From the NCBI GenBank assembly GCA_964639285.1, contig CAZXCI010000003.1:31187-95186 (forward strand): a stretch of 64,000 nucleotides of DNA. Reading direction: 5' to 3'. Numbering within the stretch: position 1 is the first letter of the stretch; every line of letters starts with the position of its first letter. Shown piece after piece: positions 22,759-48,821 of the stretch. The stretch is from an uncultured Candidatus Saccharibacteria bacterium. Lineage in GTDB: Bacteria; Patescibacteriota; Minisyncoccia; Phycocordibacterales; XYD1-FULL-46-19. The translations under genes were made by a program, and so were the position numbers. The notes beneath the pieces were generated by a model. It was not told where the DNA came from. It saw only the letters and a list, made by a program, of their open reading frames with translations, and ran no database searches.

Positions 22759-23488
22759 AGTTATCCTCTTTATTCCCCTATATAACCTCCTTGTTTTTAT
22801 TACCTCGGTTATTCCTGGTGGAGATTTGGGCTTAGCAATAATTATTCTAACGCTTTTGGTGAAACTGCTTATTTTTCCTCTCTATACCAAGTCTGTCAGA
22901 ACTCAAATCAAATTAAAATCGGTAGAAGCGAAACTAAAAGAAATCAAAGAGAAATATAAAGACAATCTCTCCGAACAGTCTCGTCAAACAATGGAACTTT
23001 ATCGACAAGAAAGGATTAATCCTTTCTCAACAATTATTGTTCTTTTTATCCAAATCCCAATCATTATCTCTCTTTTTTATGTCTTTAGAGATAGCTTTAC
23101 TATCCACACTGAGATTCTTTATTCTTTTATCACCGCTCCTCTTCAGATCAACACCAATTTCTTGGGTTGGTTCGACTTGACGGCGAGTAGGAACATTATT
23201 CTGGCGGCCTTAACCGGAGTCACTCAATATCTTCAGGTTCGTTATTCTCTTCCCCCTCCCCCCATTAAAGATAAAAAAGTTGGTGAATCTTTCAAAGAAG
23301 ACTTGATGCGTAGTATGGACCTTCAGATGCGTTACTTTATGCCCCTAATAACTGTCTTTATTGCCTTCACTCTTCCCTCGGCTATTGCCCTCTACTGGAT
23401 AACAAGCAATAGCTTCTCAGCCATCTATGAGTTAATGGTGATTAAGAAAATAAAGAAGGAAGCCGAGCTTTCTAAAGTGGCAAACTAA
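22742..23488 (+). CDS. yidC: Membrane protein insertase YidC (short Oxa1-type)
   Basis: Five-TM 248-aa protein, conserved YidC core (PLYTKSVRTQIKLK..., LIFPLY), rpmH-rnpA-yidC synteny. Confidence 0.8.
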   Translation: MIAFFKVILFIPLYNLLVFITSVIPGGDLGLAIIILTLLVKLLIFPLYTKSVRTQIKLKSVEAKLKEIKEKYKDNLSEQSRQTMELYRQERINPFSTIIVLFIQIPIIISLFYVFRDSFTIHTEILYSFITAPLQINTNFLGWFDLTASRNIILAALTGVTQYLQVRYSLPPPPIKDKKVGESFKEDLMRSMDLQMRYFMPLITVFIAFTLPSAIALYWITSNSFSAIYELMVIKKIKKEAELSKVAN

Positions 23489-24719
23489 AAGATTGGAGAG
23501 AATTATCTATTTTGTTAATAGCATAGATCCACCCTCTCTCTGGAGCGACAATAAGATTTACAAGGTCGAGAGAACCTTTAATTGGGGCGATTAGAGTGAC
23601 AGTCTTTTGTTTCAGGTTAACCTTCCAAATATCATCAGAAAAAGTAATTTTGCCTTGGTACCAGTTGTCGGGGTATGAGCCAGTTGGAATTGTTTTTGGC
23701 ACAGCACAATAGAGAGTGTCACTGTCTTGCCACAAGCATTTCTCGGGCAGGGTTTTAACTCCAACTGGTAAGGCTTTTTCTGTTTTTACATCATGTAAAT
23801 AGAGATCAAGAAGACCTAAGTTATTGCGAGAAAAAATAATCTTGTTTCCATCAGGGGAAACGCTTGTCGTTAGGCCGTTGATACCACTAAGAATTTTGAT
23901 AAAAGATCCAGTGTTGGGATTAAGAAAGTAGAGGTGGCCAGAACTACGAGCACTTGGGGTGGTGGTAAGGCTGATGATGTCACTTTTGGGCCAAGAAGCT
24001 TGCCAGTCACCATAAGGGAAGGACCAAACCTTCTTCTTGTTTTTCCCTGCCCAGTCATTAACGTAGCCTATTACCCCGGATCCAGATGTCTCTAAAGTAA
24101 AAAATTTGCTTCGGTCTGGGGAGACAGCAATTGCCGAGATATTCGTACCTAGAGCTTGATTTTTCAACGAACCAAGTTCTGTCCCAACTGGTTCTTTGAT
24201 GAGTCCAACAAGGGTGATAGTTTGGTCGAATTGGTAAAATCTAGTAATCAGTCTTTCTCCCGTTTTGTCTTTCCCCCACAAGACCTCTTGGATGTTGGTG
24301 AGAGTCTCCCCGGTGAGGCGAGAGAGATCATTTTGACTGGTTATTTCGTAAATATTACCACTTGATTTCTCAACAAAAAGAACTCGTTCTGTTTTACCCT
24401 CTCCTGCCATCGTTAGTCCAATGGCGCTAGTTCCGGCTATGGTCGGATTGATTATTGGTTCTGGTTGGTCAAAAGAAATAATGTTGGTCGGCTGGTTTGC
24501 GACGTTGGTATTGTTGGAAAAGCCAGAGTTAGAGATCATCGCTCCCTCGGGGAAGAAATTCTCAGGCACAGGAGGAACCTCTGTTCCAGATTTAACTCTC
24601 AATGGCCACAAGCTGGTTAGACTAGATGCCCCGCCTTGAGATAAGACTATATAACCAATAACTCCGAAGGAAGCAATGATGAGGACGATGAGAATGATGA
24701 TAATTACCTTTTTTATCAT
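23472..24719 (-). CDS. Membrane-anchored WD40-like beta-propeller protein (PD40/TolB-like repeats), last gene of the T4SS-like operon
   Basis: N-terminal TM helix; repeated SPDG/SPDR...F.. PD40-like motifs (SPDRSKFF, SPDGNKIIFSRNN). Confidence 0.5.
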   Translation of the reverse strand: MIKKVIIIILIVLIIASFGVIGYIVLSQGGASSLTSLWPLRVKSGTEVPPVPENFFPEGAMISNSGFSNNTNVANQPTNIISFDQPEPIINPTIAGTSAIGLTMAGEGKTERVLFVEKSSGNIYEITSQNDLSRLTGETLTNIQEVLWGKDKTGERLITRFYQFDQTITLVGLIKEPVGTELGSLKNQALGTNISAIAVSPDRSKFFTLETSGSGVIGYVNDWAGKNKKKVWSFPYGDWQASWPKSDIISLTTTPSARSSGHLYFLNPNTGSFIKILSGINGLTTSVSPDGNKIIFSRNNLGLLDLYLHDVKTEKALPVGVKTLPEKCLWQDSDTLYCAVPKTIPTGSYPDNWYQGKITFSDDIWKVNLKQKTVTLIAPIKGSLDLVNLIVAPERGWIYAINKIDNSLQSFSLPL

Positions 24720-24725
24720 AAGAAA

Positions 24726-25169
24726 TTAAATCGCATCTAGTAGTAAATTAAGATTAAGTAGGTCGGGATTTATTAAATTAAGTAACAGATAAGAGGTCAG
24801 AGCGATAAATAAACCCAGAAGAGCTTTCCGAATTTTACTTTTACCATCAAGTTTGATTCCCGGGATATCGGATGTAATATATTCAAGTCCGCCAAGGATA
24901 AAATAAAAAACAGTCGCACTGATGATAAGGACAAACATGAGGAGATAAATGGTCTTAAGATAATCAGTTAAGCCATATTCTGTTGGTTGTGTTCCTCCTT
25001 GGTCGATGATAATCGTGGGTTCAAGCAAGGTGTAACCATCAACGGCGAAAGCAAGAGACATTGGTAAATTGAAAACCATGAAGCAAAAAGTCATTAAACA
25101 GAGGGAGACTAATTTTCTTTGGAAAGGGGTCATATCTTTATTGTAATGGTTTAAGTAGGCCATTGCCAT
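24726..25169 (-). CDS. Small two-TM protein with a signal-peptide-like N-terminus, candidate VirB2/TrbC-type pilin of the T4SS-like operon
   Basis: Hydrophobic N-terminus ending LAFA, then two long hydrophobic helices; size and topology typical of conjugative pilins; start may be an internal Met. Confidence 0.35.
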   Translation of the reverse strand: MAMAYLNHYNKDMTPFQRKLVSLCLMTFCFMVFNLPMSLAFAVDGYTLLEPTIIIDQGGTQPTEYGLTDYLKTIYLLMFVLIISATVFYFILGGLEYITSDIPGIKLDGKSKIRKALLGLFIALTSYLLLNLINPDLLNLNLLLDAI

Positions 25170-26139
25170 ATTTAATAATAAAAGAATTATTGGCAGACGA
25201 AAGGAGGCTTTGAGCTAAGAAATTTACAAGATTAGATCCAGAGACCTCTGTGGATCTTCTCAGGGTAATTGCTTGGGGGTCATCGGATTTTCCTTGGGCA
25301 TTGGATCGGTCAATTTGCCAAGAATATTTGTAGTCATTGTCGTTTCCCAAGGGTAGAAAATAGGGTTCAGCTTTGATAGTGACTTCCTCCTCAAAGAGAG
25401 GGTATTCTTTAGGAATAATCTTTCCGTAAATTACCCCCTCCAGAGGCTTCTTCTCATAAAAAAGAACTTCTGGCGAGACAAGATTGATGACCACGTTTTC
25501 GTTGGCCGTTATGTTGTCGGTGACGCTCTTGGCCTCAACTTCAAGTTTAACTTGAGAAGCCCCCTTGTCTGTTTCTAAAGAAATAACATTTTTCCCTACG
25601 CCCGAGAGGTTCGTCAGAATCGCCCCATTCTTTTTCCAAGTATAAGATAGTTTGGCGGGATCTATTTTTTGTCCAGACCTACTTACAATATAGGGCAGGG
25701 CGACAATTTTTATCTTAGCCCCAGCGCTAGGCAAAGCCTTCCCCTTGTAAGGGCCAGGCTTTGAGGTCTTAGTTTCCCAAAAGAGCTCTAGCTCGGTTGG
25801 GTCAAAAATGAATGTTTTGCTCGCTTTTTGTCCTCCTCGAGCTTGAACATAAACTGAAATTTTTGTTTGGACTCCGACGGGGCCGAGATTAAAAGAAAAT
25901 TTATCAGTCCCAATACCGCGACTTTTTAGCTCATTGTCAACATACCAACTTATTACGCTGGTGTTTATTTTGAAACCATAACTCGATAAACCAATAGTGA
26001 CTGTCTCCCCCGCTCCTGGGCTAGTCGGGCTAACTTCAGCAACCAAATTATTATTCATACTCGTCTCTTGGAAAGCTTGTAGCCCCAAAGGAAGAGCCAG
26101 GAGGAAGAGAGTTGTAATTAAGGGGATTTTTTTAAACAT
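25138..26139 (-). CDS. Secreted protein with tandem Ig-like/beta-sandwich-like segments (hypothetical; T4SS-associated)
   Basis: Signal peptide MFKKIPLITTLFLLALPLGLQA; beta-rich repeats; no family recognised. Confidence 0.5.
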   Translation of the reverse strand: MFKKIPLITTLFLLALPLGLQAFQETSMNNNLVAEVSPTSPGAGETVTIGLSSYGFKINTSVISWYVDNELKSRGIGTDKFSFNLGPVGVQTKISVYVQARGGQKASKTFIFDPTELELFWETKTSKPGPYKGKALPSAGAKIKIVALPYIVSRSGQKIDPAKLSYTWKKNGAILTNLSGVGKNVISLETDKGASQVKLEVEAKSVTDNITANENVVINLVSPEVLFYEKKPLEGVIYGKIIPKEYPLFEEEVTIKAEPYFLPLGNDNDYKYSWQIDRSNAQGKSDDPQAITLRRSTEVSGSNLVNFLAQSLLSSANNSFIIKYGNGLLKPLQ

Positions 26140-26144
26140 CTTAT

Positions 26145-26579
26145 TTAAGTGGCAACACTTCTGGCCTTACCAAGTTTAGAACCACTTAGGGCCTTGGATA
26201 GTGCTGCCGCTGCTTGTGGCGATAATTTAGCGACAAGATCTTCGCTATAAGTCATCGCTAGAAGTATTATAACACTTAAAGTTATGGTTGGTATATTACT
26301 AAGAAGAGGAATAACTTCGATCAAATAAGAAACACCCACTGTCATGGCTTTTCCTGGTTTAGCATAACTGACTCCAAATAAAGAGAACCAGGTGAAGAAG
26401 GTCAGGAAAGACCAAAAAGAAATGAGCGGATTAATAATCCAGCCGAGAAGGCCAAAAGACAGGAGATCAACTAGGTTTTGAGAACCATCATAAATTAACG
26501 CCACACCAACCATCAATATGCCGATAAAGACATGGATTCTTAATTTGGGCTTTTCTTTTTTCTTTTCATCATTCTCCAT
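26145..26579 (-). CDS. Polytopic small membrane protein (hypothetical; T4SS-associated)
   Basis: 3-4 predicted TM helices; lysine-rich N-terminus; translationally coupled to neighbours. Confidence 0.45.
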   Translation of the reverse strand: MENDEKKKEKPKLRIHVFIGILMVGVALIYDGSQNLVDLLSFGLLGWIINPLISFWSFLTFFTWFSLFGVSYAKPGKAMTVGVSYLIEVIPLLSNIPTITLSVIILLAMTYSEDLVAKLSPQAAAALSKALSGSKLGKARSVAT

Positions 26580-26581
26580 TA

Positions 26582-28414
26582 CTAATTAGGTGTCGCCCCG
26601 GCTTGTCTAGATGTTTCGAAGTCAGCTTTAGCTTTCTTAATCGCTAAAATTTGTGACGGATCAGAAGTAATAATTTGCTCTTCAGTGTAAGAGGCGATAA
26701 CTTTGATTTCTACTCGCTTGAGACCAGCAATGAAGATGCCGTGACCGATGGGGGCCTCAAGTAAGAAGTATTTCTCTTCCTCGGTGAGGTTAAAAGTTTT
26801 TTGGACAAGATCAATAGACGCAGAAGATTGTTTGAGGAGTATTTGGATAGAACCGTTGGTGATAATTGGCCCACCATACTCAGACTTTAGGAAGTCATCA
26901 ACATCCTGGGTAATTGTGGCAACCCCGAGATAATATTTGCGACCTCTTTTTACCAAAGAATACAGGAAGGAGGCGGCATCTTTGGACTTCATCATAACCC
27001 AAGCCTCATCAACAACGAAGAGGCGTTTCTTAAGATTACGACGAATAGCATTCCAGATGTGGTGAGTAATGATATACATGGCAACAGCCTTTAATTCCTC
27101 CTCCATGTCTCGAATGGAGAAGACGACGAATTTCTTGTTGATGTCAACGTTCGTTGGCTTGTTAAGGAAGCCAGCCCAAGTTCCTTGGGTGTATTTAAGG
27201 AGGCGTTGGGCCAAAGACTCCCCTCCTTCCATCCCCGCTAGGACTAATTCTAGGTCAGAGAGAAGTGGGGCTGGTTTATTAGTGAAATCGGAGTCAGGGG
27301 TAATATCTTTAAGGGCATAAGTTTCAGAAATAGCGTTGTCGAGGATAGAATCTTCCTCTGGGGTAAGTCCGCCGAGCATAATGCGGAAGAGCCCTACGAG
27401 GTTGATGATGTTTGAGCGAAGAACGTCTGATGGCGCCTCATCTTCACGAGGAAAAGGTAGGTCAAAGGGATTAAGGTGGTGTTCGGAAGTTAGTGAGATA
27501 TTGAAGTAACGGCCGCCAACCGCTTCAGCCAAGAACTCGTATTCCCTCTCTGGGTCGATGACGAGAACATCGGTGTCAAACATGAGGCTACGGAGAATCT
27601 CCAGCTTGGTCGTAAAAGATTTTCCTGAACCAGATTTAGCAAAGATAACTGAGTTGTAGTTCTCTAGGGAAAAACGGTCGAAGATAATAAGGGAGGAGTT
27701 ATGAAGGTTTTGTCCATAGAGGATACCTTTATTAGATGTTAAGTCAAAAGAAACAAAGGGAAAGATGCTTGAGAGGGGGGAAGAATTTAACTTAGAGTTA
27801 ACCCCTAAGTAGTCAGTGGCAAAGGGCACTACACTCTTGAAGCCTTCATCTTGCTGGAAGAGAGCCGTCTTGAGATAAATGAGGCGGGAGTCAAGAATTG
27901 ACTTAACCTCATTTTCTACATGTTCAAGCTCATCTTCGTTGTCGGCGTAGATGGTAAGGTAGAGACCGACGTTAAATATCTTCTCAGTAGCTTGCTGTAA
28001 TTGGTCACGAAGGTTCTCGATATCAGCCTGGGCGGTATCGAGTTGGGGGTCACGAACCATTCCCTTCTGCTCTCGGACCATTATCTGACTCTCTACCTCG
28101 GCAATTTTTTTCTGCAGGGCGCGAAGGGCAGTAGTGGTATCTAATGGATGAATGAAAATAGAGATATCGAAGACTTTATCTAAATTTACAATCGGAGAAA
28201 ACCATTCCTCAGGCAAGAAGCGGGGGTAGGAAATGACGAAGAGGGTTCGAGCGACCTTCTCGCCGAGATTGAGGTTCTTGGGGGTAATACGAAGAGCAGA
28301 AGGGGCAATAATATCCCGCAGTTCAAGCTCCCCCATCTGGTAGATATCTTGAGGGAAAATAGGAATAAGGTTTTCCTGTTTCTTGTTTGATTTGCCTAAA
28401 AAGGGTATCTTCAT
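26582..28414 (-). CDS. VirB4/TrbE/TraC-family conjugal-transfer ATPase, C-terminal two thirds (contains Walker A and B)
   Basis: Walker A FAKSGSGKSFTTK, Walker B LFVVDEAW, AAA-like (DUF87) architecture; the N-terminal region resembles the start of the ATPase part of Gram-positive ConE/TrsE-type VirB4. Confidence 0.75.
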   Translation of the reverse strand: MKIPFLGKSNKKQENLIPIFPQDIYQMGELELRDIIAPSALRITPKNLNLGEKVARTLFVISYPRFLPEEWFSPIVNLDKVFDISIFIHPLDTTTALRALQKKIAEVESQIMVREQKGMVRDPQLDTAQADIENLRDQLQQATEKIFNVGLYLTIYADNEDELEHVENEVKSILDSRLIYLKTALFQQDEGFKSVVPFATDYLGVNSKLNSSPLSSIFPFVSFDLTSNKGILYGQNLHNSSLIIFDRFSLENYNSVIFAKSGSGKSFTTKLEILRSLMFDTDVLVIDPEREYEFLAEAVGGRYFNISLTSEHHLNPFDLPFPREDEAPSDVLRSNIINLVGLFRIMLGGLTPEEDSILDNAISETYALKDITPDSDFTNKPAPLLSDLELVLAGMEGGESLAQRLLKYTQGTWAGFLNKPTNVDINKKFVVFSIRDMEEELKAVAMYIITHHIWNAIRRNLKKRLFVVDEAWVMMKSKDAASFLYSLVKRGRKYYLGVATITQDVDDFLKSEYGGPIITNGSIQILLKQSSASIDLVQKTFNLTEEEKYFLLEAPIGHGIFIAGLKRVEIKVIASYTEEQIITSDPSQILAIKKAKADFETSRQAGATPN

Positions 28415-28417
28415 ATC

Positions 28418-29086
28418 TTATTTTTTTGGTGATTCGTCGATGGTCGGAGTCCCAGATTCTCCGGGGTTAAAAATCTTAAAGTAAATCTCGATTAACTCTT
28501 CAGTCTCTAAGATCTCATTTCTTAGGCCAACACGAGAAAGTCCGCTTCGGATAACATTGACACGTTGGTTGAGCTGGGCAACATTCTCTTCAAAATTGCT
28601 GTTGGCGATTTCTTGACTCGATGATTTATCGTTACGACCCAAAAGACCCGACAAGAATCCCCCTTTTCGGGTGTTTAGTATTGGCGGAGTATAAGGAATG
28701 ACAACAAAGAAATTCTTAGTCATGACGTTATGGGTATCGGTAAAAAATTTGATGAACTCAATGTACTCCTTAATCTGGACCTTCAGAAGCTCGTTTGTTT
28801 GGGCGAGCTTCCTCTCCTCTAAGATATTCAGATATGGTCTGATATCAAGACGTCTCGATTGAATAAAAATCTGGATAGAGAAGTCGATAGAGTTTAGAAA
28901 ATTCTGAAATTCGGCAATAATGGCCAGGCGCTCATCACTTGACTTGAGTCCGAAGTTAACTGAAGAGACCATAACCAAAGAGCGGAGAGAACCATCCTTG
29001 AGAACCGCCACCCCGCTCCTGATCTCTCTGATCGGGACGAAGTCTTGGGTCGTATTAGAAACCTTTATAATATCTTTAAAGTCCAT
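28418..29086 (-). CDS. VirB4-family N-terminal domain encoded as a separate 222-aa ORF (stop TAA directly abuts the ATG of the ATPase ORF)
   Basis: FKDIIKV...VAVLKDGSLRSLVMVSSVNFGLKSSDERLAIIAEFQNFL...IQIFIQSRRLDIRPYL matches the N-terminal pattern of Gram-positive VirB4 homologues (IKDG...ILEV.PINF.L.S..E...II..F). 222 + 610 aa is about a full VirB4. Confidence 0.55.
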   Translation of the reverse strand: MDFKDIIKVSNTTQDFVPIREIRSGVAVLKDGSLRSLVMVSSVNFGLKSSDERLAIIAEFQNFLNSIDFSIQIFIQSRRLDIRPYLNILEERKLAQTNELLKVQIKEYIEFIKFFTDTHNVMTKNFFVVIPYTPPILNTRKGGFLSGLLGRNDKSSSQEIANSNFEENVAQLNQRVNVIRSGLSRVGLRNEILETEELIEIYFKIFNPGESGTPTIDESPKK

Positions 29087-29196
29087 CCCGTTAGAAACAG
29101 ATCGCGATCAAAAAATCGCTCTCTCTTCTTAATTTATTTTTTAATAATATCGGATTCATGTTTTGTTTCAATAAGTTATTTGAGCGATCGCGGTTT
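29087..29196. repeat. Intergenic 110-bp element bounded by a perfect 11-bp inverted repeat (CCGTTAGAAAC ... GTTTCTAACGG) with internal GATCGCGATC palindromes and an AT-rich core carrying a minus-strand promoter-like TTGAAA-16-TATTAT
   Basis: Seen directly; fills the exact gap between the PrgI-like gene stop and the VirB4 N-domain ORF start. Confidence 0.4.
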
Positions 29197-29637
29197 CTAA
29201 CGGGGTCCATTATCTTCTTCTTTTAAATTAGTATTGTCTTTAACATCGAGACTCCAGGAGAGTTCCTTCAATTTACTCTCAGAGAGTCGAGGGAGATTGA
29301 GGTTGGCTGTGGTCTCTCCGGCCGTTTTTGTTGTAGATTTTTGAGTAATGACCTGGCGTTCAGACTTCTTCCATAAATAGAGTTTCTTGGTGGTACTATA
29401 CTTGAAGAAGGATTCAGCTAGAAAAATGAAATCTCGACCGTTGTATTTGTAGAAAGTTAGAGCGGCGGCTAAGCTAAGACAGCCAAAGATGAAAAAAATT
29501 GATATATAGATAGGTAGATAAACGTAGAATATAAAGCTAAGACCAACCCCGCCCGCCATGTAGAGGAATTGTTTGAAGGTAAATGGCCCAAAAACCTTAT
29601 CTTCGACTTCAATAAATTGTGGAACTTGGAATTGCAT
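29197..29637 (-). CDS. PrgI-family / VirB3-like small membrane protein
   Basis: MQFQVPQFIEVEDKVFGPFTFKQFLYMAGGVGLSFIF... N-terminal pattern and two-TM topology typical of PrgI-family proteins that sit immediately upstream of VirB4 in Gram-positive T4SS. Confidence 0.5.
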   Translation of the reverse strand: MQFQVPQFIEVEDKVFGPFTFKQFLYMAGGVGLSFIFYVYLPIYISIFFIFGCLSLAAALTFYKYNGRDFIFLAESFFKYSTTKKLYLWKKSERQVITQKSTTKTAGETTANLNLPRLSESKLKELSWSLDVKDNTNLKEEDNGPR

Positions 29638-30164
29638 TAAACAATGGGCTCACGATATGGATCCCTTGTCTTATTATCTCCTGTTTGAGGCGTAACGGCA
29701 ACTTCTTGTTTGGGGACATTGGCGATTGTTTTCATCTTATTGTCGAAAACTTGGGTTGCCGAAGGGCCAGGGGAAGCGGGAGTTGTCGCAGAACCCTCAA
29801 TTTTCTCTGGAGGAATTTGTTTTTGCTCCGTTTCTTTGACGGGTTCGGCTCGTTCCCGAGAAAGTTCCTCTAGTTCTCGACGAATCTTGGAGAAAATTTG
29901 TTGGTTGAGATCGTAGATTATCAAGTTGACAATATCTTGAGCTAGACCAGTTTTATCTTTTATTTTTTGGCTAAAGTCCGTTACTTTAGTTAGTCCAACC
30001 ATGGCTAGGGTGATTTCTTCAGCGATTCTTCCCAGTTGATCAACGTGTAAATTGTATTTTTTTCGTAATTCATCAGTGATAGCTCCCATATCGAGGTTGG
30101 CGATAACACTCTTTAGTTTTTCGGGCAGAGTGTCAAATTTTTTTCCGATTTCTTGTTTATTCAT
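29637..30164 (-). CDS. Hypothetical soluble protein (175 aa) of the T4SS-like operon
   Basis: Translationally coupled (1-nt overlap) to the PrgI-like gene; Pro/Thr-rich C-terminus. Confidence 0.45.
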   Translation of the reverse strand: MNKQEIGKKFDTLPEKLKSVIANLDMGAITDELRKKYNLHVDQLGRIAEEITLAMVGLTKVTDFSQKIKDKTGLAQDIVNLIIYDLNQQIFSKIRRELEELSRERAEPVKETEQKQIPPEKIEGSATTPASPGPSATQVFDNKMKTIANVPKQEVAVTPQTGDNKTRDPYREPIV

Positions 30165-30193
30165 TTTTCTATTTATCTTTTAGCCTTTTATAA

Positions 30194-32713
30194 TTAGAAA
30201 GCTGCTCCTCCTTGACGAGGATCGTTTAGGTATTGATAAGCGTTCTCGATGGTTCGGTCTGTCGGGTGAGGACCTGCACCACGATGGTGTTCGATCGCAG
30301 TTCTGATCGCTTGCCTCTCTGTATGTGGAACACCCATAGTTAAGGCACTTCGCAACTGTTCATTTGTTAGATAGGGGTATATGTCAGCATAAGCACCATT
30401 AAAGAGGTCGGTATTGGTGGCAAATTCGACAAATTCTGGCCCTGCAAGATTTCTTAGGGCATTTATTCTATTTATCTCATTAGGATTAGCAGCTGCCCAT
30501 GCTGGATTAAAGGAAGACATTGGGTGGGCAAGGGGCGTTCTCCCTGGGGTTCCAATATTTAATTCGGCCGTTGCCTGTTCTGTTCTGTTGACTCGACCCC
30601 TTTCTCTTGCCACTTCGCCCCTCGCTGTGGCTGTCGTCCTGGCATTTCTTTCAAAGGCCCCTCTTGCTGTTGCAACGTTAGCTCCTAGTGCCGATGGTAT
30701 TGGTGGTGCGCCGGCTACTCCTGGTGTGGGAGGAGCCATCCTGTTGACAAAAGCTTCAAGGTCCGCCTTTTCTCTGGCATTTAATCCTTCATAGAGATTA
30801 TTGAGCTGAGGTCCATCTAGGGAATTGAGATGGGCTAGTCTTTCGGCATCATTCCCTGGGTCGATTCCTCTCCAAGAGGCGGCGGATGTTTCTCTTGCTG
30901 CTCGTCCGCTTCCACTGGCTAGGAGTCTATTGGCCTCATTTCCTCGCCCTTGAGTTCTTAATTGCTGGACGACAGTGGCCTTGTCCTCTGGTGATAAGCT
31001 ACGGAAATAGGCATCTCTATCATCAGTTGACCTCAAACGTGACATATAAGAGGCTCTTTGGGCCCCAGCTTGTGGACCAGTGAAACCTGCGGCCCTCTGT
31101 TGTTGAGCTCTCTGTCTTTCTTCCACTCTTGTTCTGTAACCACGAGTGCCTGTGCCAAAGCCAGAGTTACCAATAGAACCAAGCGCTCGTCGGGCCCCCA
31201 TTGCTACTCGTCCAGTGATTGGTCTTGCCGACGAGGCCCAGGCCTGCATTCTCTGGCTCGTTGCTAGCCGGTTAGCAAGGTTACCGACGGTGTAACCTCC
31301 GGCTATACCGAGGGCTCCAAAACCGAGTCTCCTGCCCCAACTTCGGGCAGCCCCGGCTCCAGCGGCACCAAGGCTGTTTGCAATTAAGATACAGCCAAAG
31401 AGAAGGCCAACAATCATGAAATTCATAAAGACAAGGATCATTGGCCCCATAGACCCTAAACTGTTGGCGTCCTTGCCCAGTAGTCCTCCGATTCCATCCT
31501 TTAAGAAAATGAAAACTACATAAAGTGGAACGATTATTCCAGGGGCAACGAAGGCTTGATGAAGAAGTTTCTTAAGCCAGGTGTCAAAGTGATGTCTACC
31601 ATTTGGTATGACGTATAAGACAAAAGCAATGGGTGAAATAACATAGAGAAAAATAAGATAAACAGTTCTAATGAGAAACATAATTGACATAGCTATTAGG
31701 ACAAAACAAGAAACCAGAATAATAATAATGTTCCCGAAAGTTTGAATAATTATACCAGCGATACTTAAGCTCCCGATCACTGGGGCGAGAATAATGACTT
31801 CATTTCCATCAGCATCAGTCGCCTTAACCGGGATTGAAGGACCACCAAGAAACTGTTGGCTTAAATTTAGCTTACTAACTAATTGTCCGCCGATGCCAAG
31901 TTTGTTTCCCCCTGTCGCGATACCACCACCCATCTTGACGTAGAATTCATAAGCAACAACATTGGAGGCATCGATAATGATTCTAGTGAAGAAACCGCTG
32001 AAGTTGACAAGGAGAGCAATAATTATAACATTGACGATTAATTTCTTGGGATCACCTATTCCTTGGAGTTCAAAAATTGTCCCGATGGCGATATAGAGTA
32101 AGATGAAAACAAAACAGAGATTCCCGATGTCACGCAATACTGTCCAAGCGTTATCGATGCCGGAGTTTATTAACCAATCCTTTACGCTTAGGATAGAGAC
32201 TTTTATCGAGATATCTAGAATAGTTCCTGCGGCGACTAAGAGACTACCAAAGACCCAAGTTAAAGCATCGCCGATGGCGGCGAGGACTCCCCGGACACAC
32301 CCTCCGATATTTAAGGGGCTACAAGAATCATCTTGGTTTGCTTCAAGGTATTGTCTAGCTGATTCTTCGTCAACAAATTTTCCTCTAAATTCTCCAAATC
32401 CTCCTCCTGATATGAGAGCAGCTTCTCGCATGGCAGCTAAACCCTCTTTTTGGCTTTTCCCTACAGACAGATCGGGGAACCAGGTAAAACCGTAATTATG
32501 AAGGGTTGAAGAGACTCCTGATACAGGGTTCAGTATCATCGCCCCATAATGTAGCCCCATGTCCCAGAAATTACCAACCACTGATGTTATCGGTGCACTA
32601 TAACCTCCACCGATAGGAACGTTCTGGCTTAGGCTTATCAGGGGGAAGACTATTGCTAAGAGCAATACCCCTGAGATAAGAATATTTATTTTTAATTTCT
32701 TTCTTAAGCTCAT
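30194..32713 (-). CDS. VirB6/TrbL-like polytopic membrane protein (839 aa) with a long Ala/Arg/Gly-rich hydrophilic C-terminal tail
   Basis: N-terminal signal/TM, extracytoplasmic segment, at least 6 closely spaced TM helices in the middle third, then a roughly 380-aa low-complexity tail; architecture typical of TrbL/VirB6. Confidence 0.5.
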   Translation of the reverse strand: MSLRKKLKINILISGVLLLAIVFPLISLSQNVPIGGGYSAPITSVVGNFWDMGLHYGAMILNPVSGVSSTLHNYGFTWFPDLSVGKSQKEGLAAMREAALISGGGFGEFRGKFVDEESARQYLEANQDDSCSPLNIGGCVRGVLAAIGDALTWVFGSLLVAAGTILDISIKVSILSVKDWLINSGIDNAWTVLRDIGNLCFVFILLYIAIGTIFELQGIGDPKKLIVNVIIIALLVNFSGFFTRIIIDASNVVAYEFYVKMGGGIATGGNKLGIGGQLVSKLNLSQQFLGGPSIPVKATDADGNEVIILAPVIGSLSIAGIIIQTFGNIIIILVSCFVLIAMSIMFLIRTVYLIFLYVISPIAFVLYVIPNGRHHFDTWLKKLLHQAFVAPGIIVPLYVVFIFLKDGIGGLLGKDANSLGSMGPMILVFMNFMIVGLLFGCILIANSLGAAGAGAARSWGRRLGFGALGIAGGYTVGNLANRLATSQRMQAWASSARPITGRVAMGARRALGSIGNSGFGTGTRGYRTRVEERQRAQQQRAAGFTGPQAGAQRASYMSRLRSTDDRDAYFRSLSPEDKATVVQQLRTQGRGNEANRLLASGSGRAARETSAASWRGIDPGNDAERLAHLNSLDGPQLNNLYEGLNAREKADLEAFVNRMAPPTPGVAGAPPIPSALGANVATARGAFERNARTTATARGEVARERGRVNRTEQATAELNIGTPGRTPLAHPMSSFNPAWAAANPNEINRINALRNLAGPEFVEFATNTDLFNGAYADIYPYLTNEQLRSALTMGVPHTERQAIRTAIEHHRGAGPHPTDRTIENAYQYLNDPRQGGAAF

Positions 32714-35700
32714 ATACTCATTGTCTTCTGGGTTGTCCCTTTGTCATTGGTGCAATCTAATTTATATTCTCTGGCGGTGGTGGAAGCGGTGACAAGGAGG
32801 TTTGCTCGCTTGGTGAGACTATCCCCTTTTTTCTTAATGATCTCTTCGCCGTTGGCCCAATCATTTCCGGCTTTGCAGTCGGTGGCATTGGGTGAAGCCC
32901 AGTAGAGAAGATATTGGCCGTCTCCCTTATCTTTATCAGCAAAGTAGACGAGAGGCTTAATATTCTTATAAGCGTTGGCTAGGAATTCTATGAGTAATTC
33001 TAGTAGATTGAGACTGTCAGATGACGGAGAGTCTGATTCCCCGATTACTAAGTCGAGTAAACCGGTGAAATTTGACCATTCGGTGCCTCCTTCACCCCCA
33101 TCAGTGCCATCACCATCATCGCCTTCACCAGTTCCTCCCTCGGTTCCCCATTCGCTCGTATCGGGAGTATAAGTGCTAGCTTGTTCAATTTGGTCAGGAA
33201 TCCCGTCAGGGCCGACCATGCCCGGGCCAGGGGCCCCACCCCCGTCAGTCGTGGGGGTGAAGTTGTAGAGCTCACTCACGTTCGGCTCATTGCCCACGTT
33301 GATATCACCCATATCTTTGGCTGTCTCATATTGCGTTAGCCTGGTTCCCATTCCTTGAGCAGCTGTTTCTTTGACGATACTAGCAGGAGTTTGGGTTTCC
33401 CACATAATACATGTTTTGATTGAAGAATCTTCTGGGTCAGTAATCCATTTATTGCATTTTCGGACCGGAAGGAATCCTTGGCCAGCGATCATCTCATCTC
33501 GGACATTTGCTTCGGCTAAGGCCTGACTTCTTTTTAGTTGATCATTGGCGATTAGATAGCTACCATAACGGTTGTTTTGCGGTTGGAACATTTTGAGTAG
33601 GGCTGTCCAATATTCTGCGTCTGTGTAATCCTCAGAATCTGAGGCTTCTTCTTCCGCATAACTAGTTTTTATCCCAAAGAGGGAAGACAGTTTGTCTATC
33701 GGATTAGCCAAATAGCCTAAGAAAGGGATGTTTCTCAGTGTGGCAAGAATCGAAGTATTTTTTTCTTGAGCAACTATTTCTTCCGACTGATCACTGGCCT
33801 TGAACCCATTTTCTTCGGCGGAGCTGATTATTTTTATCTCTTTCTCTGTAAGCGTTGGCTGGAAAGGACGGCCAACTGAATCTATCTGCAAGGCATCGGC
33901 GATCTCATCTTTGTACATGTTCTTTGAGTTTCTAATGCGATCAAGGACAATTCTTTTTGCTTCATCTCTTGCCTGAGCGATTAAGACTCCTTCGTTGACG
34001 ACATAGAGAGGAGCACTATTCCCGTTGGAGTCTTGATATCCCTTTTTAATAAGCCCTTCTTCTCCCAACAGCGCCCCCTTATACTGTTCAATCACTGTTG
34101 AGGCGGCTCGTCTTACGGCGGCATCCTCAACCATTTTTTCTTCAAATCTCTGTTGGATACGTTTAACGGCGCGGATATGGGTACAAATTTGAACATTTAA
34201 CTCTCTTATCTCTCTTGTTCTTCTCTCGATACTATTGGTTAGACTCATTAGTTGGCCGTTTTGCTCGACAACCGGGACATAGAGACCACCGGTGACAGTG
34301 TCTGTCACGGTATCGACGACCGTGTCGACAACTCCCCCCTCGTCGAGGATCCCTTCTAGTCCGGGAATGCTGTTTATAATATCGCTAACACCTGGTAATT
34401 CGTCTAAGGCACCAGAGAAGTCATCGATAAGACCATCGACAGATAGTCCGTTGACCATATCACCCAATAAATCTTCTGGTAGGTCAGAGAGGACACTGTC
34501 AACAATTTCGGGGAGGCCGTTGTTTAGAATATTGCCCAAAGCCCCTTCGCCCAAGAGGGAGAAGACGGTCTCACTCACGTCTCCGTCTAAGAAACTCAGG
34601 ACTTGATTGAGCTGGCCACCACCCAACTGGCTGAAGATGTCATTGAGAGAACTCATGTTGAGATTGCCAAGGATAGAGTTAAGGTTACCTTCACTCAAGT
34701 TACCGAAGATGCCGTTGATGGCCCCATCTCCGAGTCGTCCGATAATTCTATCAAGACTCCCTGATGAGATGTTGTCTATGACGTCGTCAAAATCTTCTAG
34801 ATTATAAGTATTGTTGATGAAGTTATTTAGAGAAGTATCGTTCAGGTCATTGAGCAAACTTGTCAGTTGAGAGGAAGAGAATTGAGTGAGGATGGTCTCG
34901 TTTGACTCGTAAGATAGCCGTCCAATAATACCACCAAGATTACTAGAGGGGAGTTCATCAATAACTTCACTTAGATTACTAATGTTTAAGTTTTCGAGAA
35001 CATGATTGAGGCTATCATAAGGGAGTTTGGTGATAATATCTCGAATATTTATTGTGCTCTCTGTTGGAGAGGAGAGTATCCGATTGAATGAGTCATTAAT
35101 TTGCGATTCGTCGAGAGCCAAAAGTATTTCTGATAAATCGGTGGGGGTGGCCTTATCTAAGTCAACCGGTGTTGTCCCAAGGAGAACAGTCCTTACGGGG
35201 TCGGTCTTCTCAGCATGCACAAGGTTATGAAGAGATAAGTTGTCAGAAAGGAAGTTATCAATATAAGTAATTAGTTTGTCCAAAGGCGAATCAATGAGGG
35301 CTGTTTTTCCCCCGCCGACAGTTCCGCTGAGTTTTGCGTGCCAATGATCACCATATTTTGCACCTTTTTCTCGAGTGAAGACGTCTCCGTTATCGAGATA
35401 ATGTGTTTTAAACTTGGTTTTTTTAGATATTGTGGTGCTTACTGTGTGTTTTTCAATATACTCATTGAGTTTTGCGTTGTCGGGACTATAGTCTACGACG
35501 TTAGCACCGGGTTTATGTTCAACATGCCCAGCCTCTGTTCCAGAAGTTATCACTAGGCCACCTCCTATTTCCCTATTTATCTCGGCGGATCGGTCGATTG
35601 AATGTTGGGGTAATCCGCCGACACTGGTACAGCCACCTTTGACCGTGCGGAAGTCTCTTCCTGCACAATCAGCTTTGTTCACGGTTATTCCTTCCGCCGC

Positions 35701-36276
35701 AAGTTTGTCTCTTGTTTCTTGTTCGCCTCCCGCTGGCTCTCCGTAACCGTTCGCTCCTTCTCCGCCTTGCTCGTCTGAGTCAGGATTCTGAACGGGGTCG
35801 CTATCGCTGGGTTGGCCTTGGTCTCCTGCCCCATCCCCTTCCCCAGTTGTGCCATCTCCTGTTCCGCTCCCCGTCCCGGTCGTGCCAGAACTTCCACCGC
35901 TATAACCGCCAGCCTCAGCTTCACAACGGATCTCGTCTTCTTTTTGGAGTTTGGCCAACTCTTCGGCTTCTTTGTCTGTAGTTTTCTTATCTTTCCCTAC
36001 TCTTTCTTCTAGGGAGTCTTCTCCGCTATTGCCACTGGCGCCATTACTGCCACTATCTCCACCGTCGCCTCCACTGTTGATGATGATGTCGGCGACGTCA
36101 TTTATATCAATGTCGCCAACGCTATCACTTCCTCCACCACTGGGGAAACCCGTATCAGGGACAGGAAGGTTAGATATCTGAGCCCCAGTATTTTGGGCGA
36201 TTAAGAAAATAACTAAGGCTGAGAAAATGACCAGAGTTAGTTTCTTGAATATATTTTGTGAGGTTCTCGTGGTCAT
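32710..36276 (-). CDS. Giant secreted/surface protein (about 1190 aa) with acidic Gly/Asp/Ser-rich N- and C-terminal regions and a central array of degenerate Leu/Asn/Ser-rich repeats
   Basis: Signal peptide after the internal Met (MTTRTSQNIFKKLTLVIFSALVIFLIAQNTGAQ); the ORF opens at 36321. Repeats of the form S/N-L-N-x-x-L-x-x-L-x-(I/L)-x-x (LNHVLENLNISNLSEVIDEL, LGGIIGRLSYESNETIL, LDRIIGRLGDGAINGIFGNLSEGNLNSILGNLNMSSLNDIFSQLGGGQLNQVLSFL). 4-nt overlap with the VirB6-like gene. Confidence 0.6.
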   Translation of the reverse strand: MTTRTSQNIFKKLTLVIFSALVIFLIAQNTGAQISNLPVPDTGFPSGGGSDSVGDIDINDVADIIINSGGDGGDSGSNGASGNSGEDSLEERVGKDKKTTDKEAEELAKLQKEDEIRCEAEAGGYSGGSSGTTGTGSGTGDGTTGEGDGAGDQGQPSDSDPVQNPDSDEQGGEGANGYGEPAGGEQETRDKLAAEGITVNKADCAGRDFRTVKGGCTSVGGLPQHSIDRSAEINREIGGGLVITSGTEAGHVEHKPGANVVDYSPDNAKLNEYIEKHTVSTTISKKTKFKTHYLDNGDVFTREKGAKYGDHWHAKLSGTVGGGKTALIDSPLDKLITYIDNFLSDNLSLHNLVHAEKTDPVRTVLLGTTPVDLDKATPTDLSEILLALDESQINDSFNRILSSPTESTINIRDIITKLPYDSLNHVLENLNISNLSEVIDELPSSNLGGIIGRLSYESNETILTQFSSSQLTSLLNDLNDTSLNNFINNTYNLEDFDDVIDNISSGSLDRIIGRLGDGAINGIFGNLSEGNLNSILGNLNMSSLNDIFSQLGGGQLNQVLSFLDGDVSETVFSLLGEGALGNILNNGLPEIVDSVLSDLPEDLLGDMVNGLSVDGLIDDFSGALDELPGVSDIINSIPGLEGILDEGGVVDTVVDTVTDTVTGGLYVPVVEQNGQLMSLTNSIERRTREIRELNVQICTHIRAVKRIQQRFEEKMVEDAAVRRAASTVIEQYKGALLGEEGLIKKGYQDSNGNSAPLYVVNEGVLIAQARDEAKRIVLDRIRNSKNMYKDEIADALQIDSVGRPFQPTLTEKEIKIISSAEENGFKASDQSEEIVAQEKNTSILATLRNIPFLGYLANPIDKLSSLFGIKTSYAEEEASDSEDYTDAEYWTALLKMFQPQNNRYGSYLIANDQLKRSQALAEANVRDEMIAGQGFLPVRKCNKWITDPEDSSIKTCIMWETQTPASIVKETAAQGMGTRLTQYETAKDMGDINVGNEPNVSELYNFTPTTDGGGAPGPGMVGPDGIPDQIEQASTYTPDTSEWGTEGGTGEGDDGDGTDGGEGGTEWSNFTGLLDLVIGESDSPSSDSLNLLELLIEFLANAYKNIKPLVYFADKDKGDGQYLLYWASPNATDCKAGNDWANGEEIIKKKGDSLTKRANLLVTASTTAREYKLDCTNDKGTTQKTMSI

Positions 36277-36280
36277 GTTA

Positions 36281-36973
36281 TTAATTACTGACAAAAATCT
36301 GGATTTTTTCGTTATCAGCAAAAGTTACCTTATTTAAAACAAAGAATTGGTTTAGCGTTTCGATAGATTTGATGAAGTCTGAATAATCATGGTTGAAGGT
36401 CTGGCTATTTTCCAGAGCGAGAGTCGGCTGAGACAAGGCTTGTTCCATATTCTTAAGACGACTGACAAGCAGATTTATTTGACTGACGATTTTGAAATGG
36501 CGGCTGGCCAATTCCTTGGGAACGGGAATTTTTGTCAGACTTAGAGCTACCTGCTCGTGGAGAATCCTAGAGAAGGTTACTGATTTGATGAACGAACCGT
36601 CATTTTTATCAATGGCCGACAGCACGGCCCTGGCCTCACTCTCTCTCCTCCCGCTTAGGGGTTTGAAGGTCTCGGCCAGACGAAGTCCGTAGGTTCGGAA
36701 GTCTTGCGGACTGCTTACTCCAGTAGTCGAACTAGCGATGATCGGTTTCTCGGCCAATTGACTGATCGAGACATTTGTTTTATTGGAGGAGAGTTCCTGT
36801 CGAGAGAGGTCCTCGAGGTTCTTATGTTTTTCTAAAATGTCGCTTAGATAAGCTTGTCGTTTTTTTTCTTCTCTGGATTTTTTTTGATGGCCGACAAACC
36901 ATAAAGAGACAATGGTAAGTACCACTAAAACAATCACTAGCCGTATCACATTTTTGCTTGGTAAATGGGCCAA
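36281..36973 (-). CDS. Membrane-anchored hypothetical protein (230 aa), first gene of the T4SS-like operon
   Basis: N-terminal TM (LVIVLVVLTIVSLWFV), coiled-coil-like remainder. Confidence 0.45.
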   Translation of the reverse strand: MAHLPSKNVIRLVIVLVVLTIVSLWFVGHQKKSREEKKRQAYLSDILEKHKNLEDLSRQELSSNKTNVSISQLAEKPIIASSTTGVSSPQDFRTYGLRLAETFKPLSGRRESEARAVLSAIDKNDGSFIKSVTFSRILHEQVALSLTKIPVPKELASRHFKIVSQINLLVSRLKNMEQALSQPTLALENSQTFNHDYSDFIKSIETLNQFFVLNKVTFADNEKIQIFVSN

Positions 36974-37058
36974 CTGTACTCAATATTATATAACGGTCAG
37001 CTACTTTATGCACTGAAAAAAGGTGGATAAATAAACAATTTTAATCTATTATTTAGGG

Positions 37059-38096
37059 ATGAGAAATTTTTTTTTAATTTTTCTAATTTTGTTGATGGTT
37101 CTTCTGTCTTTCCCTACTCCCTCTTCCGCTCAAGTTCTGCCTTTTGGTGGGAAAATCCTCTATACAGACTGGTGTTCTTGTTCAATGAATTTACTCATTT
37201 ATTATTTGCGGGTTCGCGATTTCATGCCTCAACTTCTCTCTTATCGGGTCGGAGGGAGTAAGCTGTATTCTTATTATAATCTTACCGAGGGGATGGAGAT
37301 CTTGGGGACGACCGTTTCTCCTGATGTTTGTTTGACAGGATCACATTGCCATCCTCATCCTCTTGTCGCGGCCATGGGAACTCCTTGGCTAATTAGTATT
37401 GTCGGGACTTCTGACCCTTCTCATCGAGCCTCTGGCTCTGGCTCTGGCTCCGGTTCGGGCTCAGGTACAGGTACAGGGACAGACACGGGGACAACTGGCC
37501 CCACTTCGACCACGACCCCAGACGGAGCTCCTCCTTGTTCTAGTGATGCTGACCGTCTCGCTTCTAGTTATATTATGGCCAATGAGGGTTGGAGTAATTC
37601 CTGTTATCCCGATGCCGGAGGACGCTCGGTTGGAGTTGGCCACTTCATCACTCCTGGGGACGGGATTGATTGTAGCCGTCCTCTCTCAGATGCTGAAGTC
37701 CAAGAGCTCTTTGAAGAAGATTATCCTCAATATCGGGCTGATGCTGAAGCTTCAGCCGCTCGTAACGGTGTCGATTGGGATGCTTTGTCGCCAGAGCGAC
37801 AGGCGGTGCTCACTGATATGGCTTACAATATGGGAGCTGAAGGGGGAGGGGGGCTGAACGGCTTCACTGAGATGTGGGGGGCGATAAGACAAGCTCAATC
37901 AACCAGTGGGACCCAAAGTCAGCATCATTGGAATACGGCTGGTGATGAAATTATCGAGACTACGACACCTTATGGACAAGGTGCTCGAGCCGGGCGAAAC
38001 AGGACAATAATGAGGACGAATGGTAGTTCGACCATCAATCGCCAAGTTAATTCCGATCCTCACGCTAGAAATTATTGCGCTGAAGAGACAACTTAG
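37059..38096 (+). CDS. Secreted GH24 (phage/T4-type) lysozyme-like muramidase with an N-terminal Cys/His-containing domain and a (SG)n/(TG)n/Thr-rich linker; candidate VirB1/PrgK-type cell-wall hydrolase
   Basis: Signal peptide; linker SGSGSGSGSGSGTGTGTDTGTTGPTSTTTPDG; C-terminal domain ANEGWSNSCYPDAGGRSVGVGHFIT...LSDAEVQELFEEDY...NGVDWDALSPERQAVLTDMAYNMGAEGGGGLNGFTEMW parallels T4 lysozyme (EGYYTIGIGHLLT...KDEAEKLFNQD...[31 protein letters not shown]). Confidence 0.65.
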   Translation: MRNFFLIFLILLMVLLSFPTPSSAQVLPFGGKILYTDWCSCSMNLLIYYLRVRDFMPQLLSYRVGGSKLYSYYNLTEGMEILGTTVSPDVCLTGSHCHPHPLVAAMGTPWLISIVGTSDPSHRASGSGSGSGSGSGTGTGTDTGTTGPTSTTTPDGAPPCSSDADRLASSYIMANEGWSNSCYPDAGGRSVGVGHFITPGDGIDCSRPLSDAEVQELFEEDYPQYRADAEASAARNGVDWDALSPERQAVLTDMAYNMGAEGGGGLNGFTEMWGAIRQAQSTSGTQSQHHWNTAGDEIIETTTPYGQGARAGRNRTIMRTNGSSTINRQVNSDPHARNYCAEETT

Positions 38097-42029: not shown

Positions 42030-42036
42030 ATTAATA

Positions 42037-44400: not shown

Positions 44401-44472
44401 GGTGCTTTTTCTAGATCTTGCCGAGGGGATAACTTGATTGAAAAAAGGCTCTTTTTGGGCTAAGATGCGAAG

Positions 44473-48816: not shown

Positions 48817-48821
48817 ATTTG

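Follow-up and report, generated by a model that had tools for sequence, protein, structure and literature searches.

A probable type IV secretion operon of the Patescibacteria clade beside the chromosomal origin of a Paceibacteria genome

The 64,000-nucleotide stretch of DNA analysed here (contig CAZXCI010000003.1, positions 31,187 to 95,186; hereafter the window) carries a 13.5-kb operon which very probably encodes a type IV secretion system (T4SS) of the Patescibacteria clade, i.e. a monoderm, MPF_FATA-related machine that would move macromolecules between an epibiont and its host and that lies on the chromosome beside the replication origin (oriC) in the arrangement of the Paceibacteria. 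The locus is a further example of a kind of T4SS already described in publications from 2023 to 2025 and not a new system. It is a clean and complete Paceibacteria example for which a parts list can be given. Patescibacteria represent a large share of bacterial diversity. Their systems form a new branch of the T4SS superfamily according to a 2025 review (PMC12857230). They are the only T4SSs shown to be essential for the growth of the bearer, a finding made only in Southlakia epibionticum (PMC10633639, PMC12857230).

Two earlier studies describe related loci. In Southlakia epibionticum ML1 the T4SS cluster SEML1_0004-0019 lies beside dnaA/dnaN and is largely essential for epibiotic growth as determined by transposon sequencing (Wang et al. 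2023, PMC10633639). According to its structure-based annotation the cluster encodes VirB4, PrgI, PF18895 pilins and a pair of VirB6-like proteins, with a hypothetical gene at the TrsD position, and in addition Ig-like exported proteins, a lysozyme and a 1113-aa protein ending in a Hedgehog/DD-peptidase domain (PMC10633639). A survey of Patescibacteria reports a monophyletic MPF_FATA-related VirB4 clade with TrsD, PrgI, VirB6 and VirB2 near virB4, and places virB4 close to dnaA/dnaN/rnpA/ksgA; Paceibacteria are among the surveyed classes (Quinonero-Coronel et al. 2025, PMC12102498). The original prediction for the window, made from the letters alone, had linked the locus to a T4SS module of the Patescibacteria (candidate phyla radiation, CPR), a link that these studies and the review support (PMC12102498, PMC10633639, PMC12857230). 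The lineage has to be read as Paceibacteria (Vogelbacteria-like) instead of Saccharibacteria.

Engine, membrane channel and shared gene order

The list of open reading frames (ORFs) contains eleven consecutive minus-strand genes between 36973 and 23472 and, in divergent orientation, a plus-strand lysozyme gene at 37059-38096. All twelve ORFs are found where the original prediction had placed them and their sizes agree. Proteins are named below by their length in amino acids (aa). Neighbouring operon genes are spaced by -41 to +29 nt, with the single exception of a 110-nt gap between the PrgI and TrsD genes (29087-29196), and the gene at the operon end, encoding p415, overlaps the convergent yidC by 17 nt. 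This tight packing is consistent with one operon. Single N-terminal hydrophobic segments are present in p230, p1203, p333, p415 and p345; p839 has nine hydrophobic segments and p144 has three. These topologies agree with the original prediction.

The VirB4-type ATPase p610 (26582-28414, minus strand) comprises the C-terminal two-thirds of VirB4. It matches NCBIfam conju_CD1110 at 2.5e-112 and 376.5 bits (cut-off 325) over model positions 181-732 of 752 and exceeds the cut-offs of the Pfam families P-loop_TraG (2.8e-26), AAA_10 and DUF87, which confirms the earlier assignment. Walker A (AKSGSGKS) and Walker B (LFVVDE) motifs are present, and identity to R388 TrwK is 23% over 309 aa. The trsD-like gene (28418-29086, minus strand) ends 3 nt before virB4 and encodes a 222-aa protein that corresponds to the VirB4 N-terminal domain as a gene of its own. 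Its match to NCBIfam TrsD (NF041427) lies at 9.2e-8 and 32 bits, under the curated cut-off of 200; it also aligns with the N-terminal regions of complete VirB4 models (VirB4_plasma 99-233, 9.5e-12; CD1110 2-115), and a precomputed match to PF26593 (TraC-like) is on record. Since p222 covers the N-terminal model positions and p610 the remainder, VirB4 is split in two genes here. The separate N-domain had been claimed before, and a split VirB4 has been reported for the Patescibacteria clade (PMC12102498).

Two further membrane components had been named in the original prediction. The PrgI/VirB3-like protein p146 (29197-29637, minus strand) exceeds the Pfam PrgI cut-off (8.3e-10, 39.5 bits, cut-off 27). 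The extended polytopic protein p839 (30194-32713, minus strand) joins its nine hydrophobic segments to a hydrophilic tail of about 390 aa. The window copy found no match in Pfam, TrbL included, and a weak one in NCBIfam to the conjugal-transfer family MMCAP2_0566 (2.5e-4). Comparison with R388 TrwI by hhalign was weak as well (E 4.5e-4, probability 33%), and a profile search of the PDB gave nothing significant. TrbL/VirB6 (PF04610) is matched by eight of 45 orthologues, at best with 1.9e-10, and by this transitive homology p839 is likely VirB6/TrbL-like, as had been proposed.

Relatives were collected by a scan with one genome per GTDB species, which yielded 80 loci (L001-L080) with VirB4 71-93% identical to that of the window. 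The metagenome-assembled genomes concerned are labelled Vogelbacteria, Nomurabacteria, Taylorbacteria, Adlerbacteria, Wolfebacteria or carry generic names, all of them Paceibacteria-type. The shared gene order reads ksgA, a variable region, the bitopic protein, the large anchored protein, the VirB6-like protein, p175, PrgI, TrsD, VirB4, in part a three-transmembrane (TM) protein, p333, the pilin, the propeller, yidC-rnpA and dnaA-dnaN. By tblastn (E<=1e-5; many loci are incomplete, which affects the counts) TrsD is present in 79 of the 80 loci, p333 in 75, PrgI in 74, the VirB6-like protein in 63, the propeller in 61, p175 in 55 and the pilin in 50. The recurrence of this order around VirB4 in 80 distinct GTDB species is, by these sequence comparisons, far beyond chance and answers the expectation that it would be kept in related genomes. 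The exact window VirB4 sequence is also present on Logan contigs of several SRR89257xx-SRR89258xx runs.

Conservation is unequal within the locus. VirB4 (71-93%) is better conserved than DnaA (48-91%) and YidC (33-81%) of the same genomes, for example in locus L080 with 73% for VirB4 versus 48% for DnaA. Judged from these identities, the constraint on VirB4 is unusually strong for a secretion ATPase. Accessory proteins are 21-65% identical across the relatives, with values as low as 21-35%, and p1203, p230 and the lysozyme, often too diverged, are detectable in 7-18 of the 80 loci. The contrast between a VirB4 more constrained than DnaA and fast-evolving surface parts is one of the leads that this locus offers.

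Position beside the replication origin

The operon is flanked by yidC, rnpA (22408-22758), dnaA (20758-22152) and dnaN on one side and by a DUF192 gene, ksgA (38502-39326) and a UvrD-type helicase gene on the other. DnaA-box matches cluster at 20589-20725 and at 22162-22221, one group to either side of dnaA, and the minimum of the cumulative GC skew falls at about 22-24 kb. Together with dnaA/dnaN these features place the operon next to a chromosomal origin and not to a plasmid replicon. The original prediction that no replication genes are visible is thus wrong. Located on the lagging-strand side, the operon is read head-on towards oriC; its orientation relative to dnaA is kept in related loci.

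This setting bears on the idea of a conjugative element or a remnant of one (an integrated plasmid or an integrative and conjugative element, ICE) which transfers DNA between Patescibacteria. VirB4 is indeed nearest to conjugative MPF_FATA models, namely CD1110 of CTn-type ICEs and the VirB4 of Mycoplasma ICEs, a VirD4-like ATPase is present, and a tyrosine recombinase is encoded at 54650-55675. The recombinase, however, is XerC/D-like and stands 16 kb away among housekeeping genes. A Pfam scan of 47 window ORFs of at least 116 aa, including all of at least 270 aa, detected no relaxase family, in line with the earlier claim; an oriT is recognisable only where the relaxase family is known. There is no variable insertion site either: the same neighbours (ksgA, yidC, rnpA, dnaA, dnaN) flank the operon in 80 species, its divergence tracks that of host genes, and GC content does not jump at its edges. 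Only about 100 Patescibacteria genomes were found to have relaxases, and these seldom lie close to virB4 (PMC12102498). The lack of a relaxase and the fixed chromosomal position speak against conjugation, and we regard a conjugative origin of the present locus as extremely unlikely.

The Patescibacteria-type T4SS favoured here nevertheless has much in common with the conjugative T4SSs of monoderm MPF_FATA elements, for which we compared pCF10 Prg/Pcf, pGO1 Trs, CTn2 of Clostridioides difficile and Mycoplasma ICEs. Shared are a CD1110-type VirB4, TrsD, PrgI, a likely VirB6-like protein, one or more wall hydrolases, a VirD4-like ATPase and the lack of an outer-membrane core complex. The window system differs by having no relaxase among the ORFs scanned and no recognised VirB8-like protein, by its fixed chromosomal position without mobility, and by a VirB2-like pilin, which is absent from those systems (PMC12857230). 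With the survey clade it shares an MPF_FATA-related VirB4, TrsD, PrgI/VirB3, a likely VirB6, a VirB2-like pilin, the neighbours dnaA/dnaN/rnpA/ksgA and the lack of a relaxase (PMC12102498).

Wall-active proteins, pilin fusions and module exchange

The divergent lysozyme gene (37059-38096, plus strand) encodes a secreted protein, p345, whose C-terminal domain, at about aa 165-320, is a GH24 (T4-type) lysozyme. As a single sequence p345 found no match in Pfam. A profile of eight sequences with p345 as first row aligns with residues 10-155 of T4 lysozyme at 3e-18 and reaches 7e-18 for the lysozyme domain of T4 gp5. The Glu and Asp aligned with T4 lysozyme E11 and D20 are invariant in the family, and a Ser was placed by eye at the position of T4 lysozyme T26. 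On this basis p345 is a predicted GH24 muramidase, in agreement with the earlier call. It resembles T4 lysozyme (gpe) and the gp5 spike in its catalytic domain and the two conserved catalytic residues. Unlike T4 lysozyme, p345 has a signal peptide, an N-domain with Cys residues and a Gly/Ser/Thr linker attached to this domain, and its gene is chromosomal and paired with a T4SS.

The largest protein of the operon, p1203 (32710-36321, minus strand; 1188 aa if translation starts from the ATG at 36276), is modular and anchored at its N-terminus. It is built from a Cys-rich LAS-like module (about aa 190-345), MgtE_N-like repeats (about 360-670), a core (672-1030) and a C-terminal domain (1100-1203), of which the core and the C-terminal domain recur in 240 representative clusters. 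The LAS-like module keeps the motifs H..PG..VD and HWH, also in homologues. Such motifs are typical of LAS zinc peptidases. No match was obtained in Pfam or by PDB profile search, and hhalign against a Pfam-verified HH_signal/M15_3 domain was weak (E 0.004, probability 8%); from the motifs the Cys-rich module looks LAS-like.

The N-terminal part of p1203 is exchanged between relatives. Of the core family's 150 best-scoring representatives, eleven carry the LAS-like module, eight a GH24 domain and none carries both; the LAS-like module in p1203-type representatives precedes the MgtE_N-like repeats. In the close relatives L002, L005 and L007 a GH24 domain, 42-48% identical to the separate lysozyme of the window, lies inside the p1203 orthologue and occupies the place of the Cys-rich LAS-like module. 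These fusions tie the divergent lysozyme gene to the T4SS. Further p1203 orthologues bear He_PIG, F5/8-type-C, fn3 or filamin modules. The modular p1203 family is not described in the main text of PMC12102498, and the swap of GH24 against the LAS-like module was not found in the literature searched. In the more distant Paceibacteria loci L035 and L079 the VPV.E core is missing from the large protein encoded upstream of VirB6, which has another conserved motif, W[IV]NSGF.GSP.FV, in its stead; to judge from these sequences the slot of p1203 is kept and the protein family is replaced.

The core of p1203 yields a confident predicted structure (predicted local distance difference test, pLDDT, 80). 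This model has no matching fold in the PDB, and a BFVD search was likewise empty; a PDB profile search with the core gave nothing significant. A search for homologous proteins returned one match for the core; with the core alignment and with the LAS-like module it returned no match. The absence of a solved-fold match for this core was not found in the literature searched. A VirB5-like nature of the core, suggested by a 'VPV.E' N-terminal motif, was rejected: there was no Pfam match, hhalign against TrwJ gave a probability of 0.1%, and no PDB match was obtained.

The pilin of the window, p147 (24726-25169, minus strand; 136 aa from the ATG at 25136), consists of a signal peptide and two hydrophobic helices. 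It matches PF18895 at 7.7e-4 and 19.9 bits, under the cut-off of 26.6. Among its orthologues 40 of 44 match this family (best 2.1e-10) and nine match TrbC/VirB2 (PF04956), so the protein first described as pilin-like with two TM segments is classed as a VirB2-like T4SS pilin via these orthologues. A family HMM run over the window found no second copy.

Many of the sister pilins are longer. The product exceeds 200 aa for 32 of 48 orthologous pilin genes, and Pfam domains of wall enzymes were recognised among the 44 orthologues: YkuD in four, VanY in three, NlpC/P60 in three, and Peptidase_M15_4, M15_3/HH_signal and CHAP in one each. Examples are found in loci L011, L014, L017, L030, L032, L034, L050 and others; the window pilin is unfused. 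The enzyme domain is C-terminal to the pilin domain in the five fusions examined in detail. The Cys-rich LAS-like module of p1203 is also fused to the pilins of L014, L011, L066 and L067. We found no description of fusions between pilins and wall enzymes in the literature searched, which included the main text of PMC12102498 and, for the papers as a whole, part of the figures and supplements. The fusions physically tie several wall enzymes to the pilin and to a large protein of orphan fold and provide leads for the choice of targets in cultivable relatives.

Such fusions could be taken to mean that the locus encodes a degenerate T4SS which no longer transports and serves as an adhesive or wall-remodelling surface organelle, with the VirB2-like proteins as anchors for wall enzymes. 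The length of most pilin orthologues, the C-terminal position of the enzymes and the swappable hydrolase or lectin-like modules of the p1203 family would suit such an organelle, and bulky fusions may fit poorly into a helical pilus. Against it stand a VirB4 more strongly constrained than the DnaA of these loci, the retention of VirB3, VirB4 and a likely VirB6 together with a coupling ATPase beside the locus, all of which fit an active translocase better, and the unfused state of the window pilin itself. We consider the loss of transport distinctly unlikely.

For a transporting T4SS the same observations suggest a tentative idea, to which we give a rather low probability: in Paceibacteria the system may work as a conduit armed with enzymes. 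Both the pilin, in most sister genomes, and the p1203-type protein would bear interchangeable modules for wall cleavage or glycan binding (GH24, LAS-like, VanY, YkuD, NlpC/P60, CHAP and lectin-like), set on a conserved, structurally unmatched core, and would cut through the wall of a specific host. If true, module swapping would track host range, and the host specificity of uncultured CPR bacteria would be predictable from their sequences. It would also be a way of engaging a host that has not been described for any T4SS.

Coupling ATPase, accessory proteins and proposed working of the system

Overlooked in the original prediction, a VirD4/TraD-like coupling-protein (T4CP) ATPase, p787, is encoded at 42037-44400 (plus strand). 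It has an N-terminal TM segment followed by an unassigned domain of about 340 aa, a Walker A motif GQTGTGKS and a Walker B motif YLYIDE. Pfam matches comprise T4SS-DNA_transf (5.4e-9, 35.8 bits, cut-off 20.1), TrwB_AAD_bind (26.1 bits, cut-off 20.5) and TraG-D_C; the NCBIfam matches SXT_TraD (1.3e-11) and CD1115 (5.4e-9) are far under their cut-offs, and BLASTP against R388 TrwB gives 2e-9 around Walker A. The gene for the cytoplasmic p143 (41598-42029, plus strand; no Pfam or NCBIfam match) ends 8 nt before it and is kept directly upstream of the T4CP in L081-L084. Downstream follows a predicted secreted LysM-LysM-Peptidase_M23 endopeptidase (44473-45519, plus strand; Peptidase_M23 6.3e-34, LysM 1.5e-25), whose gene is beside the T4CP in L081, L083, L084 and L085; from its position we infer that it belongs to the T4SS.

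This three-gene unit (41598-45519, plus strand) lies just past uvrD, about 4 kb from the operon head, with the T4CP 12 genes from virB4. The position of the T4CP beside uvrD-ksgA and the T4SS is kept in L081-L084, which belong to a small set of close metagenomic relatives. In L081-L085 the T4CP is 70-93% identical, where p1203 and p230 reach only about 35%. The link of the T4CP to the T4SS is positional, syntenic in the near relatives checked, and its place beside the locus in these relatives is another lead. The survey found T4CP genes near virB4 in only 148 cases, in contrast to the close and syntenic T4CP of the window (PMC12102498).

With this ATPase as motor the locus could be a machine for nucleic-acid import, comparable to ComB of Helicobacter or the archaeal Ced system, in which host DNA or RNA feeds a nucleotide-deficient cell. 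The VirD4/TraD-like ATPase shows TrwB_AAD_bind and weak CedD and CedB matches, and adjoining genes encode a UvrD/PcrA helicase and a Mg-chelatase-type ATPase. By its domain set the latter presumably belongs to the YifB/ComM family; both it and the helicase are ordinary housekeeping genes. A 2026 preprint describes feeding on host RNA by a cultivated parasite of the Patescibacteria phylum, with tubular structures at the contact site that are maybe T4SS pili (10.64898/2026.06.21.733656). In S. epibionticum, on the other hand, transformation requires ComEC and type IV pili, and comEC is dispensable for growth while the T4SS is essential (PMC12857230). Its t4cp homologue is non-essential too (PMC12102498). 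Import as the function of the locus is therefore unlikely in our estimation. The original prediction had left open a host-interaction or a DNA-uptake machine; its view of a chromosomal, non-conjugative system is borne out by the literature (PMC12102498, PMC10633639, PMC12857230), and for DNA uptake we found no specific support.

The remaining parts of the operon are small or accessory proteins. The first gene encodes the bitopic p230 (36281-36973, minus strand), whose TM segment spans aa 9-27 and whose C-terminal domain appears alpha-helical by eye. It has no significant Pfam, NCBIfam or PDB-profile match and was found in 16 of the 80 loci, each time just upstream of the p1203 orthologue. The cytoplasmic p175 (29637-30164, minus strand) lacks a TM segment and any Pfam, NCBIfam or PDB-profile match; it is kept at the same position in 55 of the 80 loci. 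It comprises a helical N-domain, a disordered linker and a terminal DPYREP that is nearly invariant in the family and resembles a short docking peptide. Next to virB4 lies the gene for p144 (26145-26579, minus strand), a small membrane protein with three TM segments and no Pfam or NCBIfam match. Relatives have a three-TM ORF at this position. As a candidate second pilin p144 was rejected, since hhalign showed no relation to the pilin family.

The secreted p333 (25138-26139, minus strand) starts with a signal-like segment. Its alignment consensus shows a W..NG motif three times, matches to Ig-like families are weak (PKD_2 0.011, Hoc 0.04), and a PDB profile search gave nothing significant; the repeated motif suggests that p333 probably consists of three beta-sandwich (Ig-like) repeats. 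The last operon gene encodes p415 (23472-24719, minus strand), a membrane-anchored TolB-like beta-propeller. The window copy matches PD40 (0.002) and TolB (3e-4) weakly, and PD40 is found at E 0.01 or better in five of 56 family members. Over about 120 residues the family profile matches TolB propellers of the PDB (5e-7 to 1e-5), and it matches designed propellers too, which agrees with the PD40/TolB-like propeller of the original prediction. No internal similarity was found when the unknown proteins of the operon were compared with each other.

In its overall composition the locus matches the S. epibionticum cluster: both are chromosomal beside dnaA/dnaN and contain VirB4, a gene at the TrsD position, PrgI, PF18895 pilin genes and VirB6/TrbL-like genes (in the window likely so). 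Both also encode exported proteins of Ig-like type, a lysozyme-like protein and one large protein (about 1100 aa) with a LAS domain, which in the window is LAS-like by its motifs. The S. epibionticum cluster lacks a relaxase, and none was found among the window ORFs scanned. They differ in several parts. Where S. epibionticum has an array of six pilin genes and two VirB6-like genes, the window has a single copy of each. The TolB-like propeller, p175, p144 and p230 are further differences of the window, in which no NTF2/VirB8-like protein was recognised. Its hydrolase genes stand at the operon head, whereas those of S. epibionticum follow virB4, the lysozyme is of GH24 and not of phage-tail-lysozyme/glucosaminidase type, and a VirD4-like gene is located within 12 genes of virB4.

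Taken as a T4SS between epibiont and host, the parts suggest the following working. The engine would be VirB4, split into the TrsD-like N-domain and the ATPase body, and PrgI/VirB3 with the extended VirB6/TrbL-like protein would constitute the membrane channel. The single VirB2-like pilin may form a pilus or conduit through the cell's own wall and against the host cell. Wall-active enzymes would open the path through the peptidoglycan: the GH24 lysozyme would contribute cell-wall lytic capacity and the LAS-like module of p1203 may add to it. The Ig-like p333 and the TolB-like propeller could act as extracellular wall-spanning or wall-binding accessories, and p175, p144 and p230 would be lineage-specific parts. 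As cargo, macromolecules would pass between epibiont and host, either effectors outward, host material inward or both. The fast-evolving, module-swapping p1203, p230, lysozyme and pilin extensions would be the host-facing parts, in contrast to the engine with its very slowly evolving VirB4.

Several points weigh against this interpretation. Transport, its direction and its cargo are conjectural. The VirB6 and pilin assignments of the window copies come from orthologues and not from direct matches above threshold, and the LAS-peptidase assignment draws on motifs and a weak hhalign match. A VirB8-like (NTF2) component was not recognised, with no match for the profiles of p175, p230 and p333 against the PDB and for p144 against Pfam and NCBIfam. 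The coupling ATPase may be unrelated to the machine; in S. epibionticum the non-essential t4cp homologue is far from virB4 (PMC12102498). Finally, operon status is suggested by gene spacing, and a promoter-like site lies inside the gap between PrgI and TrsD.

Scans for promoters and terminators pointed to promoter-like sites in the divergent region 36974-37058 and in the PrgI-TrsD gap and were otherwise uninformative. In the 110-nt gap (29087-29196, minus strand) a sigma-70-like match of 10/12 is located at 29171-29144, and the Logan contigs that match (L087, L090) have a 39-aa ORF called there. Either an internal promoter or a small gene is possible. The 85-nt divergent promoter region between the first operon gene and the lysozyme gene contains a DnaA-box match with one mismatch, TTATCCACC, at 37022-37030 (minus strand), which may be due to chance.

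Elsewhere in the window, 47122-50132 (minus strand) encodes a 129-aa zinc-finger protein of DksA/TraR-like type and, after it, two coiled-coil proteins rich in Glu, Lys and Arg, one of 417 aa with a single TM segment and one of 436 aa. The latter have no family matches, cause the extreme AT skew of -0.43 at 48-50 kb and show 65% identity in L084. A PilB/GspE-type ATPase (11594-13309, plus strand; T2SSE 6.7e-118, MshEN) is encoded between a tsaE-like gene and ruvB with no adjoining pilus genes. A MazF/PemK-type toxin gene (15111-15515, minus strand) lies among ruvB, yebC and ruvC, with no adjoining antitoxin ORF of at least 110 aa. An Rfam scan of the window found tRNAs and nothing else. A tRNA cluster at 57683-59754 (plus strand) contains tRNAs for Arg, Leu and Gly and three for Pro (anticodons TGG, CGG, GGG), interleaved with short unannotated ORFs; the tyrosine recombinase gene at 54650-55675 is near this cluster, and perfect DnaA-box matches occur at 55687 and 58038.

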